A DNA stretch of 64,000 nucleotides from Escherichia coli (GTDB lineage: Bacteria > Pseudomonadota > Gammaproteobacteria > Enterobacterales > Enterobacteriaceae): the NCBI RefSeq assembly GCF_051903065.1, contig NZ_CP178438.1; one strand, given 5' to 3'. The position numbers and the translations under genes were made by a program. This document shows, piece by piece, positions 3,151 through 43,060 of this stretch. Positions within the stretch are counted from its first letter, which is position 1; each line of letters begins with the position of its first letter. The notes beneath the pieces are model-generated. The model searched no databases. It was given only the letters and a program-made list of their open reading frames with translations, and was not told where the DNA came from.

Positions 3151-4568
3151 TGAGCCAGTCACTGTTTAGCCAACCATTGAACGTTATTAACGTCGGCATC
3201 GCCATGTTTAGCGATGACCTGAAAAAGCAGCATGTAGAAGTGACTCAACTCGACTGGACGCCGCCGGGGCAGGGCAATATGCAGGTGGTGCAGGCGCTGG
3301 ATAACATTGCCGATTCGCCGCTGGCAGACAAAATCGCCGCCGCTAACCAGCAGGCGCTGGAGCGCATTATCCAGTCGCATCCGGTGCTGATTGGTTTTGA
3401 TCAGGCGATTAACGTGGTGCCGGGCATGACGCCGAAAACCATTCTTCACGCCGGGCCGCCGATCACCTGGGAAAAAATGTGCGGCGCGATGAAAGGCGCG
3501 GTCACCGGAGCGCTGGTGTTCGAAGGACTGGCGAAAGATCTCGACGAGGCGGCTGAACTGGCGGCTTCCGGGGAGATCACCTTCTCGCCGTGTCACGAGC
3601 ACGACTGCGTGGGATCGATGGCGGGTGTTACCTCGGCCTCGATGTTTATGCACATCGTAAAAAACAAAACCTACGGCAACATCGCTTATACCAACATGAG
3701 CGAGCAGATGGCGAAGATTTTGCGTATGGGCGCTAACGACCAGAGCGTGATTGACCGCCTGAACTGGATGCGTGATGTGCAGGGACCAATACTGCGCGAC
3801 GCGATGAAAATTATCGGCGAAATCGATCTGCGCTTAATGCTGGCGCAGGCGCTGCATATGGGCGATGAGTGCCATAACCGCAATAACGCCGGGACGACGC
3901 TGCTGATTCAGGCGCTGACGCCGGGGATTATCCAGGCGGGCTATTCCGTCGCGCAACAGCGCGAAGTGTTTGAGTTTGTCGCCAGCAGCGACTACTTCTC
4001 CGGCCCGACGTGGATGGCGATGTGTAAAGCGGCGATGGATGCGGCGCACGGCATCGAATACAGCACCGTGGTCACCACCATGGCGCGTAACGGCGTCGAG
4101 TTCGGCCTGCGGGTCAGCGGATTACCGGGGCAATGGTTTACCGGTCCGGCGCAGCAGGTCATCGGCCCGATGTTTGCCGGTTATAAGCCGGAAGATTCGG
4201 GGCTGGATATCGGCGATAGCGCCATCACAGAAACCTACGGTATTGGCGGGTTTGCTATGGCGACCGCACCCGCTATCGTCGCGCTGGTGGGCGGCACGGT
4301 GGAAGAGGCTATCGATTTCTCCCGTCAGATGCGCGAAATCACCCTTGGCGAAAACCCCAACGTCACCATTCCGCTGCTCGGTTTTATGGGCGTGCCATCG
4401 GCAATCGACATCACCCGCGTGGGTAGCAGCGGCATTCTGCCAGTGATCAACACCGCCATCGCCCATAAAGATGCGGGCGTCGGCATGATTGGCGCGGGCA
4501 TTGTGCATCCACCTTTTGCCTGCTTCGAGAAAGCCATTCTTGGCTGGTGCGAACGTTACGGCGTCTGA
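3150..4568 (+). CDS. yahG: uncharacterised protein (DUF1116-type), 472 aa
   Basis: 472-aa ORF, start codon overlaps yahF stop (3150); synteny. Confidence 0.8.
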   Translation: MSQSLFSQPLNVINVGIAMFSDDLKKQHVEVTQLDWTPPGQGNMQVVQALDNIADSPLADKIAAANQQALERIIQSHPVLIGFDQAINVVPGMTPKTILHAGPPITWEKMCGAMKGAVTGALVFEGLAKDLDEAAELAASGEITFSPCHEHDCVGSMAGVTSASMFMHIVKNKTYGNIAYTNMSEQMAKILRMGANDQSVIDRLNWMRDVQGPILRDAMKIIGEIDLRLMLAQALHMGDECHNRNNAGTTLLIQALTPGIIQAGYSVAQQREVFEFVASSDYFSGPTWMAMCKAAMDAAHGIEYSTVVTTMARNGVEFGLRVSGLPGQWFTGPAQQVIGPMFAGYKPEDSGLDIGDSAITETYGIGGFAMATAPAIVALVGGTVEEAIDFSRQMREITLGENPNVTIPLLGFMGVPSAIDITRVGSSGILPVINTAIAHKDAGVGMIGAGIVHPPFACFEKAILGWCERYGV

Positions 4569-4581
4569 CCTACATGTTCAT

Positions 4582-5035
4582 GCCGGATGCGGCGTGAACG
4601 CCTTATCCGGCCTACGAATGGCGCAAGAATCTGTAGGCCTGATAAGCGTAGCGCATCAGGCATTTGTCACCATTGCCGGATGCGGCGTGAACGCCTTATC
4701 CGGCCCACGAATGGCACGAGAATCTGTAGGCCTGATAAGCGTAGCGCATCAGGCATTTGTCACCATTGCCGGATGCGGCGTGAACGCCTTATCCGGCCTA
4801 CGAATGGCGCAAGAATTGTAGGCCTGATAAGCGTAGCGCATCAGGCATTTGTCACCATTGCCGGATGCGGCGTGAACGCCTTATCCGGCCCACGAATGGC
4901 ACGAGAATTTGTAGGCCTGATAAGCGTAGCGCATCAGGCATTTGTCACCATTGCCGGATGCGGCGTGAACGCCTTATCCGGCTTACGAGTGGCACGAGAA
5001 TTTGTAGGCCTGATAAGCGTAGCGCATCAGGCAAT
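4582..5035. repeat. REP/BIME tandem array (about 5 units, roughly 94-bp period)
   Basis: Repeated units GCCGGATGCGGCGTGAACGCCTTATCCGGCCTAC ... GTAGGCCTGATAAGCGTAGCGCATCAGGCA read directly; palindromic REP consensus; ORF-track hits inside are artefacts. Confidence 0.9.
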
Positions 5036-5082
5036 TTGGCGTTGGTCACAACCCCATCACCCTCTGTAGCGGACATAACAAC

Positions 5083-8851: not shown

Positions 8852-8890
8852 AAAAATTAATAAATACCCTGTGATTTAACATATTAACTT

Positions 8891-8924
8891 CGCTCTCCAC
8901 TTAACTTTTTAGTTAAGGAGAGCG
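8891..8924 (+). terminator. stem-loop downstream of yahK (possible terminator)
   Basis: CGCTCTCC-ac-TTAACT-tttt-AGTTAA-GGAGAGCG inverted repeat 40 bp after the yahK stop; no clean T-tract, so intrinsic-terminator status is uncertain. Confidence 0.4.
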
Positions 8925-9093
8925 AAATAATATCAAAGTAGCAGTAAAACCTATAACGTAAATTCAAATTGTTAAATTAACTCCCTCCAGTACACAATAC
9001 TTCTCACGTTAGTTATGAGCGATTTCTGATAGTGCCTGGTTTAATTAGAGCTTTATTATCTGCGACGTTTATTTTTATTTAAGAGAGATCGCG

Positions 9094-9909
9094 ATGATAT
9101 CATTAAAAGCTCCGCGCAATAATTTGATGCCATATACGCAACAAAGCATACTTAATACGGTTAAAAACAATCAGTTACCAGAGGATATCAAAAGCTCCCT
9201 GGTTTCCTGTGTCGATATATTCAAGGTTTTGATTAAACAATATTATGATTATCCTTATGATTGTCGTGATGATTTAGTCGATGACGACAAACTCATTCAT
9301 CTCATGGCTGCCGTACGAGACTGTGAGTGGTCAGACGATAACGCACTCACCATAAATGTGCAGTTTAATGATTTCCCTGGATTTTATGACTGGATGGATT
9401 ACCCTGATCACCCGGTTAAGTTTGTTTTTCGCATACTTGAAAATCAAAAAGGGACAGTTTGGGTATATGACCAGGATGATGCGTTTCTTGATATTAAAGC
9501 AAATGTGCAGGCTGGACGCTTTACCGGGCTTAAGAAATTAGTGCAGTTTATCAATTCAGTGCGAACAGATTGCAAATGTATTCTTCTTGAACACCATATG
9601 CCTTTGCTGAGACTTTTCCCTAAAGGGAAAGAATGTATGCATGTGGAAAAATGGCTTCGCGAAATGTCGTCTATTCCAGAGACAGACGCGCCCATTAAGC
9701 AGGCGCTTGCGCATGGATTATTATTACACTTAAAAAATATCTACCCTGTTTTTCCTGAATCACTGGTGATGTTATTGCTCTCTGTTCTGGACGTAAAAAC
9801 ATACAGAGATGATGCGCGATTAAATGAATGGATATCTAATAGAGTGCAGGAATTAGGTGACAGATATTATCCTGTAAATAAGCACGTTAAAATCCGCTAC
9901 ACTCTTTAG
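9094..9909 (+). CDS. yahL: uncharacterised protein, 271 aa, AT-rich gene
   Basis: 271-aa ORF in a visibly AT-rich segment flanked by AT-rich intergenic DNA; no recognisable catalytic motif. Confidence 0.65.
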   Translation: MISLKAPRNNLMPYTQQSILNTVKNNQLPEDIKSSLVSCVDIFKVLIKQYYDYPYDCRDDLVDDDKLIHLMAAVRDCEWSDDNALTINVQFNDFPGFYDWMDYPDHPVKFVFRILENQKGTVWVYDQDDAFLDIKANVQAGRFTGLKKLVQFINSVRTDCKCILLEHHMPLLRLFPKGKECMHVEKWLREMSSIPETDAPIKQALAHGLLLHLKNIYPVFPESLVMLLLSVLDVKTYRDDARLNEWISNRVQELGDRYYPVNKHVKIRYTL

Positions 9910-10321
9910 TTCAGAAAGGGTTCCACCTGAAAGTTGTTATTCCACCAGAGAGTGAATGGCAATGCAGGTAATCATTTCATCTGTATATCTGTATGCCAAC
10001 TGGCATTCCATCTCTTTTTTCGCCGATATTTTGTTGTGATCGGCGACACTTCGCTTAAAAAAGCACCAGCAGTGGTTTCGCAGCTATGCGGTGTATAAAA
10101 AATGATCTCATGCAGATGTTTTGTGAATGTGTGGGTTGACATTCATATGAAAAAAATCATAATTCCATCATGTTTGTGTGGGGTCTTTTCTGTATCTTAC
10201 GCATCGCACTCAAGCCTGACAGAAAATATGCTGTAAGGCTCATATCAAAAACCGCCATTAGCTCATCAGGAAGAGCAGACGACAACCAGGATTGTTGTAT
10301 GGTACGGGGTTCGAGGCCTCG

Positions 10322-10567
10322 ATGGCGGTCCAACTTTTCAAAACTCTTCTGAATCAGATCCCCTTATTATCATCCCTGCAAAGTGGAACATTGCCATTGT
10401 TTGGCTATTCAGGACGGGTCAGACCAATGAAAAAAGCCCACACAGGGGAGAGTGGGCTGAAATGGGAAGCTAAAGACTCAAGTAAACTTATCGGAAATAA
10501 GGACCACGCATTACGGGGGCTATCATCGCCGATGGTCGGGATTCGGCAAATCAGGTTGATTACGTAG
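10322..10567 (+). CDS. yahM: small uncharacterised protein, 81 aa (start taken at MAVQLF)
   Basis: ORF 10292..10567; an internal ATG gives an 81-aa product matching the remembered size of yahM; weak support. Confidence 0.4.
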   Translation: MAVQLFKTLLNQIPLLSSLQSGTLPLFGYSGRVRPMKKAHTGESGLKWEAKDSSKLIGNKDHALRGLSSPMVGIRQIRLIT

Positions 10568-10583
10568 AGAGTAAATTATCTGC

Positions 10584-11255
10584 TCACCGCTGCGTCACCC
10601 CTTCGTAAATCAGGCGTAGCGCGAATACACCAATAATTGCACCAATAACCCGACTGGCAACGCGTTGCATACGCCCATAAGCACGACGCACAGCGGGCAA
10701 AGAAAACGCCTGACTAAGAAAAACTCGCCAGATAATTGATGCGAGCACAATCCCCGCCCAGGCCATTAAACGTGCCCATGTTGGTGTTTCGGCATTTAAT
10801 GTTACTGAGAAAATACTGATAAAAAATAAAACGGTTTGCGGGTTAGAGAGATCGGTAATTAATCCACGGCGAAAAAAGACATACCAGGGGGCGCTAATCG
10901 GTTGTTGTAGTGTGCTCATTTGCGGTGTTGACTGGCGGCGCATGCTGCACCACGCAAACCATAAGAGATAAGCGCCGCCGACGATTCTGATAAGCGAGAA
11001 AATCTCCTCACACTGCGTAATTAGCGTTGCAAGACCAAACAAACCCAATCCGGAATAAAATGCATCGCCCAGCGCCACGCCCAGCCCGGTCAGCACCCCT
11101 GCGCGTCGACCGGAAGCCAGGCTGGTTTGTACTACCACAAAGAGATTGGCTCCCGGATTAAAAAAAGTAATCACGAACAGTCCTACGGTCAGGTAAACGG
11201 CATGCAAAGGATCCATAGTGATTTCATCCATAAATAAGTGAACTAACTGCATCAT
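10584..11255 (-). CDS. yahN: LysE/RhtB-family amino-acid exporter, 223 aa
   Basis: Hydrophobic multi-helix protein of LysE-family length; synteny. Confidence 0.8.
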   Translation of the reverse strand: MMQLVHLFMDEITMDPLHAVYLTVGLFVITFFNPGANLFVVVQTSLASGRRAGVLTGLGVALGDAFYSGLGLFGLATLITQCEEIFSLIRIVGGAYLLWFAWCSMRRQSTPQMSTLQQPISAPWYVFFRRGLITDLSNPQTVLFFISIFSVTLNAETPTWARLMAWAGIVLASIIWRVFLSQAFSLPAVRRAYGRMQRVASRVIGAIIGVFALRLIYEGVTQR

Positions 11256-11706: not shown

Positions 11707-12763
11707 GGCTTTGTTGAATAAATCGAACTTTTGCTGAGTTGAAGGATCAGATCACGTATCTTCCCGACAACGCAGACCGTTCCGTGGCAAAGCAAAAGTT
11801 CAAAATCACCAACTGGCCCACCTACAATAAAGCCCTCATCAACCGTGGCTCCATAACTTTCTGGCTGGATGATGAAGCTATTCAGGCCTGGTATGAGTCA
11901 GCAACACCTTCTTCACGAGGCAGACCTCAGCGCTATTCTGACCTTGCCATCACGACTGTGCTGGTCATTAAACGCGTATTCAGGCTGACCCTGCGCGCTG
12001 CGCAGGGCTTTATTGATTCCATTTTTTCTCTGATGAACGTTCCGCTACGCTGCCCGGATTACAGCTGTGTCAGCAGGCGGGCAAAGTCGGTTAATGTCAG
12101 TTTCAAAACGCCCACCCGGGGTGAAATCGCACACCTGGTAATTGATTCCACCGGGCTGAAGGTCTTCGGTGAAGGCGAGTGGAAAGTCAAAAAGCATGGC
12201 CAGGAACGCCGCCGTATCTGGCGTAAGCTGCATCTCGCCGTTGACAGTAAAACACATGAAATCATCTGCGCTGACCTGTCGCTGAACAACGTTACGGACT
12301 CAGAGGCCTTCCCCGGGTTAATCCGGCAAACCCACCGGAAAATCAGGTCAGCCGCCGCCGATGGCGCTTACGATACCCGGCTATGTCACGATGAACTGCG
12401 GCGTAAGAAAATCAGCGCGCTTATCCCTCCCCGAAAAGGTGCGGGTTACTGGCCCGGTGAATATGCAGACCGTAACCGTGCAGTGGCTAATCAGCGAATG
12501 ACCGGGAGTAATGCGCGGTGGAAATGGACAACAGATTACAACCGTCGCTCGATAGCGGAAACGGCGATGTACCGGGTAAAACAGCTGTTCGGGGGTTCAC
12601 TGACACTGCGTGACTACGATGGTCAGGTTGCAGAGGCTATGGCCCTGGTACGAGCGCTGAACAAAATGACGAAAGCAGGTATGCCTGAAAGCGTGCGTAT
12701 TGCCTGAAAACACAACCCGCTACGGGGGAGACTTACCCGAAATCTGATTTATTCAACAAAGCC
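11707..12763 (+). mobile_element. IS903-type insertion sequence (IS5 family), 1057 bp, intact
   Basis: 18-bp terminal inverted repeats GGCTTTGTTGAATAAATC (11707..11724) and its reverse complement (12746..12763); flanked by perfect 9-bp direct repeats TCCCCGATG (11698..11706 and 12764..12772); length 1057 bp matches IS903. Confidence 0.9.
11784..12707 (+). CDS. IS903 transposase (about 307 aa if GTG start at 11784; ORF open from 11739)
   Basis: Single long ORF filling the element; left-end DNA matches the remembered Tn903/IS903 end sequence; 307-aa size expected for IS903 transposase. Confidence 0.85.
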   Translation: MAKQKFKITNWPTYNKALINRGSITFWLDDEAIQAWYESATPSSRGRPQRYSDLAITTVLVIKRVFRLTLRAAQGFIDSIFSLMNVPLRCPDYSCVSRRAKSVNVSFKTPTRGEIAHLVIDSTGLKVFGEGEWKVKKHGQERRRIWRKLHLAVDSKTHEIICADLSLNNVTDSEAFPGLIRQTHRKIRSAAADGAYDTRLCHDELRRKKISALIPPRKGAGYWPGEYADRNRAVANQRMTGSNARWKWTTDYNRRSIAETAMYRVKQLFGGSLTLRDYDGQVAEAMALVRALNKMTKAGMPESVRIA

Positions 12764-12840
12764 TCCCCGATGCGTAAGTTTATCGGTGATCATCTATTGA
12801 AATTTATGCCGGATAAAGCGTTCGCGCTGCATTCGGCAGT

Positions 12841-20486: not shown

Positions 20487-21128
20487 ATTGTCGGATGCGT
20501 CGCGTGGCGCATCCGACACCATGCGCAGATGCCTGATGCGACGCTGACGCGTCTTATCATGCCTACAGGCCTGAACCGTAGGTCGGATAAGGCGCTCGCG
20601 CCGCATTCGACACCATGCGCCGATGCCTGATGCGACGCAGGCGCGTCTTATCATACCTACAGGCCTGAACCGTAGGTCGGATAAGGCGCTCGCGCCGCAT
20701 TCGACACCATGCGCCGATGCCTGATGCGACGCAGGCGCGTCTTATCATGCCTACAGGCCTGAACCGTAGGTCGGATAAGGCGCTCGCGCCGCATCCGACA
20801 CCGTGTGCCGATGCCTGATGCGACGCTGGCGCGTCTTATCATGCCTACAGGCCTGAACCGTAGGTCGGATAAGGCGCTCGCGCCGCATCCGACACCGTGC
20901 TCAGTGCCTGATGCGACGCTGATGCGTCTTATCATGCCTACAGGCCTGAACCGTAGGTCGGATAAGGCGCTCGCGCCGCATTCGACACCATGCGCCGATG
21001 CCTGATGCGACGCAGGCGCGTCTTATCATGCCTACAGGCCTGAACCGTAGGTCGGATAAGGCGCTCGCGCCGCATCCGACACCATGCTCAGTTGCCTGAT
21101 ACGACGCTGGCGCGTCTTATCATGCCTA
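20487..21128. repeat. large REP/BIME tandem array (about 6 units, about 640 bp)
   Basis: Repeated palindromic units GATGCCTGATGCGACGC-GGCGCGTCTTATCATGCCTACAGGCCTGAACCGTAGGTCGGATAAGGCGCTCGCGCCGCAT-CGACACC; ORF-track hits inside are artefacts. Confidence 0.9.
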
Positions 21129-23814: not shown

Positions 23815-23852
23815 TCGGCTGGGCTGTGTGTTGACAAAGCGAGCGTAGTTTA

Positions 23853-23932
23853 TGCCGGATGCGGCGTGAACGCCTTATCCGGCCTACGTAGAGCACTGAA
23901 CTCGTAGGCCTGATAAGCGTAGCGCATCAGGC
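23853..23932. repeat. REP pair (BIME)
   Basis: GCCGGATGCGGCGTGAACGCCTTATCCGGCCTACG ... CGTAGGCCTGATAAGCGTAGCGCATCAGGCA between convergent codA and cynR. Confidence 0.85.
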
Positions 23933-23946
23933 AATTGTGTCAGTGG

Positions 23947-42904: not shown

Positions 42905-43060
42905 ACGACTGCCGGATGCGGCGTGAACGCCTTATCCGGCCTACGGGTGGCGTGAGAATTTGTAGGCCTGATAAGACGCGCAAGCGTCGCATCAGGCATC
43001 TGCACACGACTGCCGGATGCGGTAAACGTCTTGTCCGGCCTACATTTCGCCCGTAGGCAG
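42905..43060. repeat. REP/BIME cluster
   Basis: GCCGGATGCGGCGTGAACGCCTTATCCGGCCTAC ... GTAGGCCTGATAAGACGCGCAAGCGTCGCATCAGGCA ... GCCGGATGCGG. Confidence 0.85.

Follow-up and report, generated by a model that had tools for sequence, protein, structure and literature searches.

Between yahK and yahN on the chromosome of Escherichia coli lies a short, AT-rich stretch of DNA, and the question it raises is whether this stretch is one foreign islet or several elements with separate histories. We address this question for positions 8852-10583 of a 64,000-nucleotide stretch of contig NZ_CP178438.1 (RefSeq assembly GCF_051903065.1), hereafter the window. A first-pass annotation, made from the sequence alone, had taken the segment for a single piece of horizontally acquired, probably H-NS-silenced DNA that encodes two orphan proteins, YahL and YahM, from which no function can be inferred. 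We find three units that differ in age within the yahK-yahN gap, which is a patchwork and not one acquired islet. The units differ in inferred age because the parts of the segment differ in distribution: a promoter and tRNA-like unit occurs in seven of the seven Escherichia lineages examined, and yahL in only two of them. The best overall explanation, which we hold to be likely, is thus a three-unit patchwork composed of an xtpA unit conserved as RNA, the orphan gene yahL, and yahM as an accidental reading frame.

According to the list of its open reading frames (ORFs), the whole window corresponds to the E. coli yahJ-yahK-yahL-yahM-yahN-yahO-prpR region; in nucleotide searches its best match was strain 23CRST027 (100% identity), and K-12 was 98.7% identical. 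The segment is, as had been noticed at first reading, more AT-rich than its neighbours: its GC content is 39.7%, whereas the window as a whole has 53.0% and the flanking genes ~55%. Windows of 500 nt across it dip to 0.34-0.43, and yahL and its flanks lie at 31-42% GC against a background of ~53%. This composition is uneven, with an 81-nt tRNA-like element of 56.8% GC (10252-10332) inside the AT-rich stretch. The 271-amino-acid (aa) and 81-aa ORFs (9094-9909 and 10322-10567, both on the plus strand) are present as first described, together with a third annotated gene, xtpA (10170-10352), that was passed over. To hold that no function can be inferred is to overlook xtpA and its tRNA-like sequence, for which a role in GcvB regulation has been reported. 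Part of the segment is also clearly not silent, as the promoter of xtpA ("yahM") was active in a reporter study and the transcript has been seen in RNA sequencing in the literature. The xtpA locus and the components of the segment are already annotated or published; what is new is the descent from phage argN, the invariance of the RNA throughout the genus as opposed to a repeatedly closed XtpA frame, the removal of yahM from the likely genes, and how often yahL is deleted. The features of the xtpA unit are as follows.

10136 to 10163, plus strand: sigma-70 promoter of xtpA ("yahMp" in the literature), TTGACA, 16 nt and CATAAT, 11 of 12 consensus positions.
10170 to 10352, plus strand: xtpA ORF of 60 aa, running through the cloverleaf and identical to K-12 b4845.
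10252 to 10332, plus strand: 81-nt tRNA-like cloverleaf, from an ARAGORN call and the minimum free energy (MFE) fold.
10252 to 10258 with 10322 to 10328, plus strand: acceptor stem, CCGCCAT/ATGGCGG, a perfect 7 bp.
10261 to 10276, plus strand: D arm, with A14, G18 and G19 kept and the D loop ATCAGGAA.
10279 to 10298, plus strand: replacement of the anticodon arm, a 7-bp stem with a 6-nt loop, CCAGGA (MFE).
10305 to 10321, plus strand: T arm, canonical, with the loop TTCGAGG.
10329, plus strand: discriminator U, followed by an encoded CCA at 10330 to 10332, from sequence and fold.

Six nucleotides separate the end of the -10 hexamer from the ATG at 10170, a spacing that fits a leaderless mRNA; in the published xtpA of K-12, which is the same locus with an identical sequence, the ATG likewise lies where the promoter predicts the transcription start site (TSS). 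UniRef gives the name XtpA to the 60-aa translation from the window, which is identical to that of K-12. In the K-12 RefSeq record the same ORF, between yahL and yahM, appears as xtpA (b4845, "putative transcriptional regulator XtpA"), and the other E. coli RefSeq annotations inspected leave it unnamed, at most as a hypothetical protein. The 2022 work of Muto, Goto, Kurita, Ushida, Soma and Himeno reportedly describes xtpA as a leaderless mRNA with a tRNA-like sequence. The RegulonDB v12 paper (PMC10767902) credits xtpA to Muto et al. 2022 (J Biochem 171:459). A reporter study confirmed the TSS at yahMp and described IHF as its repressor; the TSS, for which the study states no coordinates, is offset by ~15 nt from an earlier high-throughput call. 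A small-RNA sequencing study lists yahM among small transcripts, and PMC12288877 lists yahM-yahN as a convergent transcriptional overlap.

ARAGORN called one tRNA-like gene in the window, at 10252-10332 on the plus strand, and the elbow nucleotides U8, A14, G18G19, G53, T54, T55, C56, A58 and C61 are all present in it. A canonical anticodon arm, with a 5-bp stem, a 7-nt loop containing U33 and a readable anticodon, was not found in the cloverleaf, which cannot decode because this arm is replaced by the 7-bp stem with its 6-nt loop; the alternative reading offered by ARAGORN (anticodon GGA) needs A33 and a 5-nt linker between the D and anticodon arms. Like xtpA, transfer-messenger RNA (tmRNA, SsrA) unites a CCA-ending, tRNA-shaped fold and a small reading frame in one transcript. 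The two nevertheless differ in several respects: the tmRNA search of ARAGORN made no call on xtpA, the tRNA domain of tmRNA is formed by its 5' and 3' ends whereas the xtpA cloverleaf is contiguous and lies inside the ORF, the 3:70 pair of the cloverleaf is G-C and not the G.U alanine identity pair, and a resume codon and tag architecture are absent.

We compared the locus across Escherichia by an exact 30-mer scan of one genome per species, in which diverged copies are missed, together with look-ups via YahN orthologues. The seven lineages covered were E. coli sensu stricto, L005/L014 (labelled E. coli, yet with a synonymous divergence, dS, of ~0.65), Escherichia albertii (eight genomes), Escherichia sp. 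E1V33, L267/268, L269, and L273. In each of them the promoter and tRNA-like unit was recovered convergent with yahN, and its neighbour on the other side varied (yahL, yahK, yahJ or an SNF2-family helicase gene); it was absent from the yahN loci of Citrobacter and Salmonella bongori. Across the five gap-free lineages 0 of 81 columns of the cloverleaf were variable, compared to 29 of 88 in the leader (Fisher p = 4e-10). The body of the cloverleaf is identical in the remaining two lineages too, with one extra C in the CCA of L273, and the promoter is identical in four of the first five lineages compared. Among E. coli records, 4,821 of 5,170 carry the exact 81 nt, and flanks of equal length are exact in 2,963 and 3,591; the one-mismatch allele that we sampled (strain 148) has T68C, which we call the common E. 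coli variant and which turns a G.U into a G-C pair in the T stem.

Set against this invariance, the XtpA frame is open in only two of the seven lineages, namely E. coli (codon 4 TGG) and E1V33 (AAG). Codon 4 is TAG in E. albertii (8 of 8 genomes), L005/L014, L267/268 and L269; the start codon is lost in L269 (AGG), L273 (AAG) and one E. albertii strain (ATA), and the leader contains indels in L269 and L273. The variable sites in XtpA codons 1-27 are distributed 11/9/7 by codon position, and the ratio of nonsynonymous to synonymous differences (pN/pS) in the leader is 0.5-1.06 versus the three non-coli lineages compared. To the published account of xtpA, this comparison adds that the tRNA-like part is invariant, that the frame is closed in five of seven lineages, and that the element would originate from the argN slot of phages, as discussed below.

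Since the cloverleaf is invariant and the XtpA frame repeatedly closed, we infer that selection at the level of the genus acts on RNA, specifically on the promoter and the tRNA-shaped RNA. By parsimony, TAG would be the ancestral state of codon 4, and XtpA as a peptide would then probably have arisen late, in the E. coli lineage. The comparative pattern is compatible with a function of the peptide in K-12, yet it leads one to expect that the RNA has a function of its own, apart from the peptide. The invariance of a non-canonical stem-loop argues for more than a simple RNase P processing signal, and the constant convergent arrangement suggests a link between the unit and yahN. With an invariant cloverleaf and a repeatedly closed frame, the locus allows the RNA function of xtpA to be separated from its peptide function, and it may illustrate cleanly how an ORF can be born de novo on a phage tRNA relic that the host has domesticated.

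Several points weigh against this reading. No E. coli sensu stricto genome examined has a broken XtpA frame, and E1V33 keeps it intact despite 17 substitutions in the leader; codon 4 aside, the frame is also open through leader and cloverleaf in E. albertii, L005 and L267, the three lineages with the stop whose leader is free of indels. The comparison covers only seven lineages, and the ancestral TAG is a reading by parsimony. The published experiments reportedly ascribe the effect on levels of the small RNA GcvB to the XtpA peptide. The Rfam tRNA model fails to match the cloverleaf: searches of Rfam found no tRNA match at E <= 1 over 4.5 kb, nor any model at E <= 10 over 201 nt, beyond matches at the level of chance, one of which is the yahN terminator hairpin. 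Finally, a tRNA-sized RNA that is made, processed or charged is here at most a prediction from sequence.

These points bear on the first alternative to be weighed, in which the XtpA peptide is the sole functional product, the tRNA-like shape is accidental and the premature stops elsewhere are independent gene losses. The title of Muto et al. 2022 and the annotation speak for it, as do the intact ORF in K-12, B2, enterohaemorrhagic E. coli (EHEC) and E1V33 and the fair similarity of residues 5-27 in E. albertii past the stop. We nevertheless consider it doubtful. A gene that is dead in five lineages should see its 81 nt decay like the leader, whereas they are identical and the promoter is kept; the leader substitutions show no excess at third codon positions; and a TAG shared at codon 4 by four lineages is more simply ancestral than acquired repeatedly.

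Three further observations concern the xtpA transcript. A long-range pairing between 10175-10190 and 10429-10444 (88% complementary, 238 nt downstream) was rejected as a chance match that is not conserved in E. albertii, and the leader hairpins were rejected as a conserved structure, with a single compensatory pair among five sequences being too weak; the first 20 nt of the transcript also resemble the descending arm and U tract of the yahN terminator. In E. coli DETEC-S792 (L018:3001-3130) an IS1 insertion sequence lies in the T loop after position 62 and yahL is absent, which makes this strain a natural knock-out.

The second unit is yahL, whose features are listed below together with those of its flanks.

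9094 to 9909, plus strand: yahL coding sequence of 271 aa, from the ORF list, a lineage-restricted orphan protein gene.
9088 to 9922, no strand: 835-bp segment missing in B2-type E. coli, comprising the yahL ORF with 6 nt upstream and 13 nt downstream.
8889 to 8926, plus strand: hairpin just past the yahK stop (TTCGCTCTCC...GGAGAGCGAA), an inverted repeat.

The atypical composition of yahL, expected at first reading, was borne out by windowed GC and codon-usage analysis: its GC content is 38.8%, its GC content at third codon positions (37.9%) is the lowest of the 48 window ORFs of at least 150 aa (mean 0.59, standard deviation 0.068), and in codon usage it lies at a distance of 0.51 from the pooled genes, compared to 0.30 +/- 0.09. 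The ratio of nonsynonymous to synonymous substitution rates (dN/dS) against the L005 lineage is 0.17, with a dS of 0.66 that equals the dS of yahK (0.64) and therefore indicates vertical inheritance of yahL since the split from that lineage. By these substitution patterns, yahL is a genuine gene under purifying selection, and an old acquisition rather than a recent arrival.

Searches for YahL homologues in protein databases of 5.8 and 1.84 billion proteins returned only Escherichia sequences, at 98, 87 and 80% identity and syntenic wherever checked, with one exception. This lone exception, P0027, is a full-length paralogue (275 aa, 24% identity, pairwise E = 6e-19) encoded downstream of uxuR at L012:8001-8828 in a true E. 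coli strain (GCA_009799345.1), within an island of 31.5% GC. Its neighbours are genes for a DUF2686 protein, a gp25-like protein, a 1,350-aa invasin/intimin-like protein, a TPR_3 chaperone and an SseC-family translocon component, and the island was absent from all of 5,426 complete E. coli genomes. The island resembles the eip/air island associated with E. coli type III secretion system 2 (ETT2). Two other candidates were rejected, as a 49% identity "homologue" (P0010) comes from an error-ridden metagenome assembly of E. coli itself, and a kinship of YahL with YjfZ/DUF2686 finds no similarity.

That YahL and YahM lack recognisable motifs also held up: neither had a match above the curated cut-offs of Pfam or a significant match in NCBIfam, PADLOC or PHROGs (nor did XtpA in Pfam), the best sub-threshold family match being SDH_protease at 17.7 bits against a cut-off of 31.3, and YahL had no match to phage sequences by tblastn. 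The AlphaFold2 model of YahL (predicted local distance difference test score 64.6, predicted template-modelling score 0.56) combines a five-stranded sheet with a helical bundle at the C-terminus, and its N-terminus is disordered; it had no significant structural neighbours, and the remote-homology and structural searches together found neither a convincing fold match nor a homologue with a known function. Residues 1-25 are polar and predicted to be disordered; invasin-like, TPR_3 chaperone and SseC-family genes lie near the paralogue P0027, whereas yahL itself is linked to no gene of a type III secretion system. As a low-confidence guess, YahL may be a protein of the accessory or virulence-island type, possibly secreted; what tells against this guess is that it draws on the neighbourhood of one paralogue and on a medium-confidence model.

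As to distribution, yahL is present in E. coli and its sister lineage L005, is absent from the five other lineages (E. albertii, E1V33, L267, L269 and L273), and is deleted in B2. At the junction in clone D i14, a uropathogenic B2 strain, the sequence reads ...TTTATTTAAGAGAG/CCACCTG..., and the loss in B2 is a secondary deletion, because both the upstream and the downstream flanks of yahL remain. The full region was found in 4,021 of 5,426 complete E. coli genomes; ~1,150 (~21%) have the deleted form, covering only ~52% of the query, and 250 gave no match, the whole region being gone in another 4.6%. YahL has been proposed, alongside YdjO and YjfZ, as an E. coli/Shigella signature protein, and itself as a universal quantitative PCR target (PMC11057252). 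Its family is restricted to Escherichia in the databases, but it is not universal in E. coli and also occurs in a non-coli Escherichia lineage. The published universality is qualified by a clean deletion in about one-fifth of complete genomes, such as clone D i14.

The hairpin at 8889-8926 is likely a terminator or stabiliser of yahK. A homologous hairpin is kept in E. albertii, E1V33 and the L005 lineage, and it would for this reason be an ancestral feature of the 3' end of yahK rather than a part of the yahL insert. A target-site duplication of the yahK hairpin around the yahL cassette was rejected, since 43 of 300 shuffles score as well. In E. albertii NBRC 107761 (L013 ~1300-1480) yahK is lost, with its last ~20 bases and the following hairpin remaining, and because of this loss the tRNA-like unit sits between yahJ and yahN there.

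These results bear directly on the view that the segment is one horizontally acquired, H-NS-silenced islet encoding two orphan proteins of unknowable function. The segment and yahL have the atypical base composition and codon usage expected of an islet, with yahL adding a patchy phylogenetic distribution, and for neither composition nor homologues did we find what would have spoken against foreign DNA, namely values within the genome norm or a YahL relative of known function. Low GC, deviant codon usage and the lack of family matches favour the single-islet view, as do the restricted distribution of YahL (PMC11057252) and the report of a genomic SELEX (systematic evolution of ligands by exponential enrichment) study that RNA polymerase with minor sigma factors binds strongly in vitro inside yahL, as is typical of AT-rich foreign DNA. 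This binding is the one hint of H-NS silencing, and an indirect one; no paper in the collection searched connects yahL with H-NS data. Mobility signatures were not found, there being no integrase and no significant flanking repeats, and the neighbouring tRNA-like element is not a host tRNA. H-NS-silenced xenogeneic islets resemble yahL in AT-richness and restricted distribution, but yahL differs from them in lacking detected mobility genes or att repeats and in the age of its acquisition. The parts of the segment moreover differ in distribution and hence in inferred age, yahL has co-diverged with yahK, a strong active promoter and the annotated xtpA lie inside the segment, and conservation is lacking for the yahM ORF. 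The islet taken as one unit is already contradicted, and we regard it as quite improbable. A foreign origin stands for yahL and, in another sense, for the phage-derived cloverleaf, and falls for the segment as one islet. The inference of foreign, AT-rich orphan DNA is in itself ordinary, the yah genes being a known, uncharacterised pair.

The third unit of the patchwork is the yahM reading frame, which overlaps the end of the tRNA-like element and the convergent yahN.

10322 to 10567, plus strand: yahM ORF of 81 aa, starting at A71 in the 3' acceptor strand of the cloverleaf.
10430 to 10457, minus strand: intrinsic terminator of yahN, inside the yahM ORF, GCCCAC-loop-GTGGGC followed by T6, -14.1 kcal/mol.
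10584 to 11255, minus strand: yahN, a LysE-family exporter (Pfam LysE, E = 7.7e-60) and constant convergent neighbour of the unit.

From its start the yahM ORF crosses ~100 nt that are confined to E. coli and the L005 lineage; its later part is antisense to the 3' untranslated region and terminator of yahN, a stretch conserved in E. albertii as sequence downstream of yahN. A premature stop at codon 12 interrupts the frame in EHEC strain 148 and the L005 lineage, a frameshift breaks it in B2, and E. albertii, E1V33, L267, L269 and L273 lack it altogether. On this pattern of broken and absent frames, yahM is most likely not a protein gene, and the first-pass annotation of two orphan proteins should probably be reduced to one. 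For annotation, this makes yahM a probable false gene whose "expression" in many data sets may report the xtpA transcript.

Should yahM be a genuine young small-protein gene specific to K-12-like E. coli, it would explain why its ORF of 81 aa is intact in many genomes and named by the annotation pipeline PGAP, why a GAGG lies 5 nt upstream of the ATG, and why transcripts cover the ORF. However, the nonsense codon at position 12, the frameshift and the absence elsewhere all tell against a gene, the T arm and acceptor stem enclose the putative ribosome-binding site and start codon, and for half of its length the ORF is antisense to the region of the yahN terminator, so that we give this possibility little credence.

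The origin of the cloverleaf can be traced further. In megablast and blastn searches only the 81 nt matched phage and phage-like plasmid sequences, at 76-86% identity, and the arms are invariant when these copies are aligned. The phage homologue is the middle member of a cluster of three tRNA genes, between tRNA-Ile (CAU, "ileZ") and tRNA-Arg (UCU, "argO"), and the cluster lies in the phage late region, downstream of the Q antiterminator gene or a DNA methylase gene and upstream of stx or lysis genes. For this middle gene we use the name argN, after phage 933W; the phiP27 record annotates ileZ and argO, and a literature search on the three gene names turned up only unrelated matches. In IMG/VR the canonical form of the argN slot is a 77-nt tRNA-Arg (UCG), and a second form, ~81 nt long, has two features in common with the chromosomal element: the derived segment GGAAGAGCAGACGACA and an "anticodon" arm with a long stem. 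In most of these ~81-nt copies the T loop is collapsed, and they contain a poly-G run of variable length; because of the lost T loop most are decaying pseudogenes, and the variable run suggests ongoing decay or slippage. Well-preserved 81-nt copies, annotated as "tRNA-OTHER" between tRNA-Ile and tRNA-Arg, are found in plasmid pHX138.261ft_1 (L001:5926-6179) and phage phiP27 (L007:2919-3172), with the cluster of the latter just upstream of stx2e.

By sequence, the chromosomal element is a relative of the phage pseudo-argN with intact acceptor, D and T arms and a promoter of its own. Its acceptor stem, D arm, T arm, discriminator U and CCA are nearly identical to those of the ileZ-argN-argO cluster, and it is 85% identical to the 81-nt variant of phiP27 and pHX138. 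In contrast to the phage cluster, however, it lies between yahL and yahN with no phage genes near, and it is a single tRNA-like gene with its own sigma-70 promoter and a different "anticodon" stem-loop. Compared to the canonical 77-nt argN, it is 81 nt long with an altered arm, and its T loop is intact whereas the 81-nt phage copies mostly lack one.

Taken together, these observations suggest the following history and mode of action for the patchwork. Transcription would start from the sigma-70 promoter (10136-10163) at or near the A of the ATG at 10170, and the transcript would consist of two leader hairpins followed by the 81-nt cloverleaf, derived from an 81-nt pseudo-tRNA variant of argN (tRNA-Arg UCG) in the ileZ-argN-argO cluster of a lambdoid or Stx phage. 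The conserved and selected product would be the tRNA-shaped RNA, which may serve as a tRNA mimic, as a processing or stability module, or as part of the convergent overlap with yahN. A TAG to TGG change at codon 4 would later have opened the XtpA frame in the E. coli lineage. The yahL gene would have been inserted between the yahK hairpin and the tRNA-like unit before E. coli and its sister lineage split, and B2-type E. coli would later have lost it through the 835-bp deletion; the "expression" of yahM would reflect a 3' extension of the xtpA transcript. Tentatively, we go on to propose that a decaying phage pseudo-tRNA was captured in an Escherichia ancestor, gained a strong promoter of its own and was kept unchanged as a non-decoding tRNA mimic convergent to yahN, with XtpA perhaps born de novo through a TAG to sense change at codon 4 in E. 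coli, and independently in one other lineage, and the RNA as the primary effector; this scenario is possible, though well short of established.

That the element is instead an inert fossil of a prophage pseudo-tRNA, or a DNA attachment site, with no RNA function is very improbable: its closest phage relatives are visibly decaying pseudogenes with destroyed T loops, and the sequence directly 3' of the CCA differs among species as at integration hot spots, but the body is free of substitutions in all seven lineages, the polymorphism seen within E. coli preserves the structure, the element is driven by a consensus promoter that is itself conserved, neither an integrase nor an island accompanies it, and replacement by integrating elements would homogenise the 3' part only.

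Elsewhere in the window, an IS903-like element of the IS5 family (1,066 bp, 11707-12772; transposase ORF 11739-12707) separates yahO from prpR, being located immediately downstream of both yahO and the prpR stop; one of its ends has the sequence GGCTTTGTTGAATAAATCG. Strain 148 lacks the element at this site, and the annotation of clone D i14 has no transposase between yahO and prpR. BLAST against the E. albertii locus also revealed clusters of ~90-bp repeats resembling repetitive extragenic palindromic (REP) sequences or bacterial interspersed mosaic elements (BIMEs) at 4523-5040, 20530-21081, 23835-23936 and 42910-43005; a y-ome paper describes yahH as "filled with REP23 sites". Of all the ORFs in the window, the one of 160 aa at 4587-5069 deviates most in codon usage (0.68); it is probably spurious.

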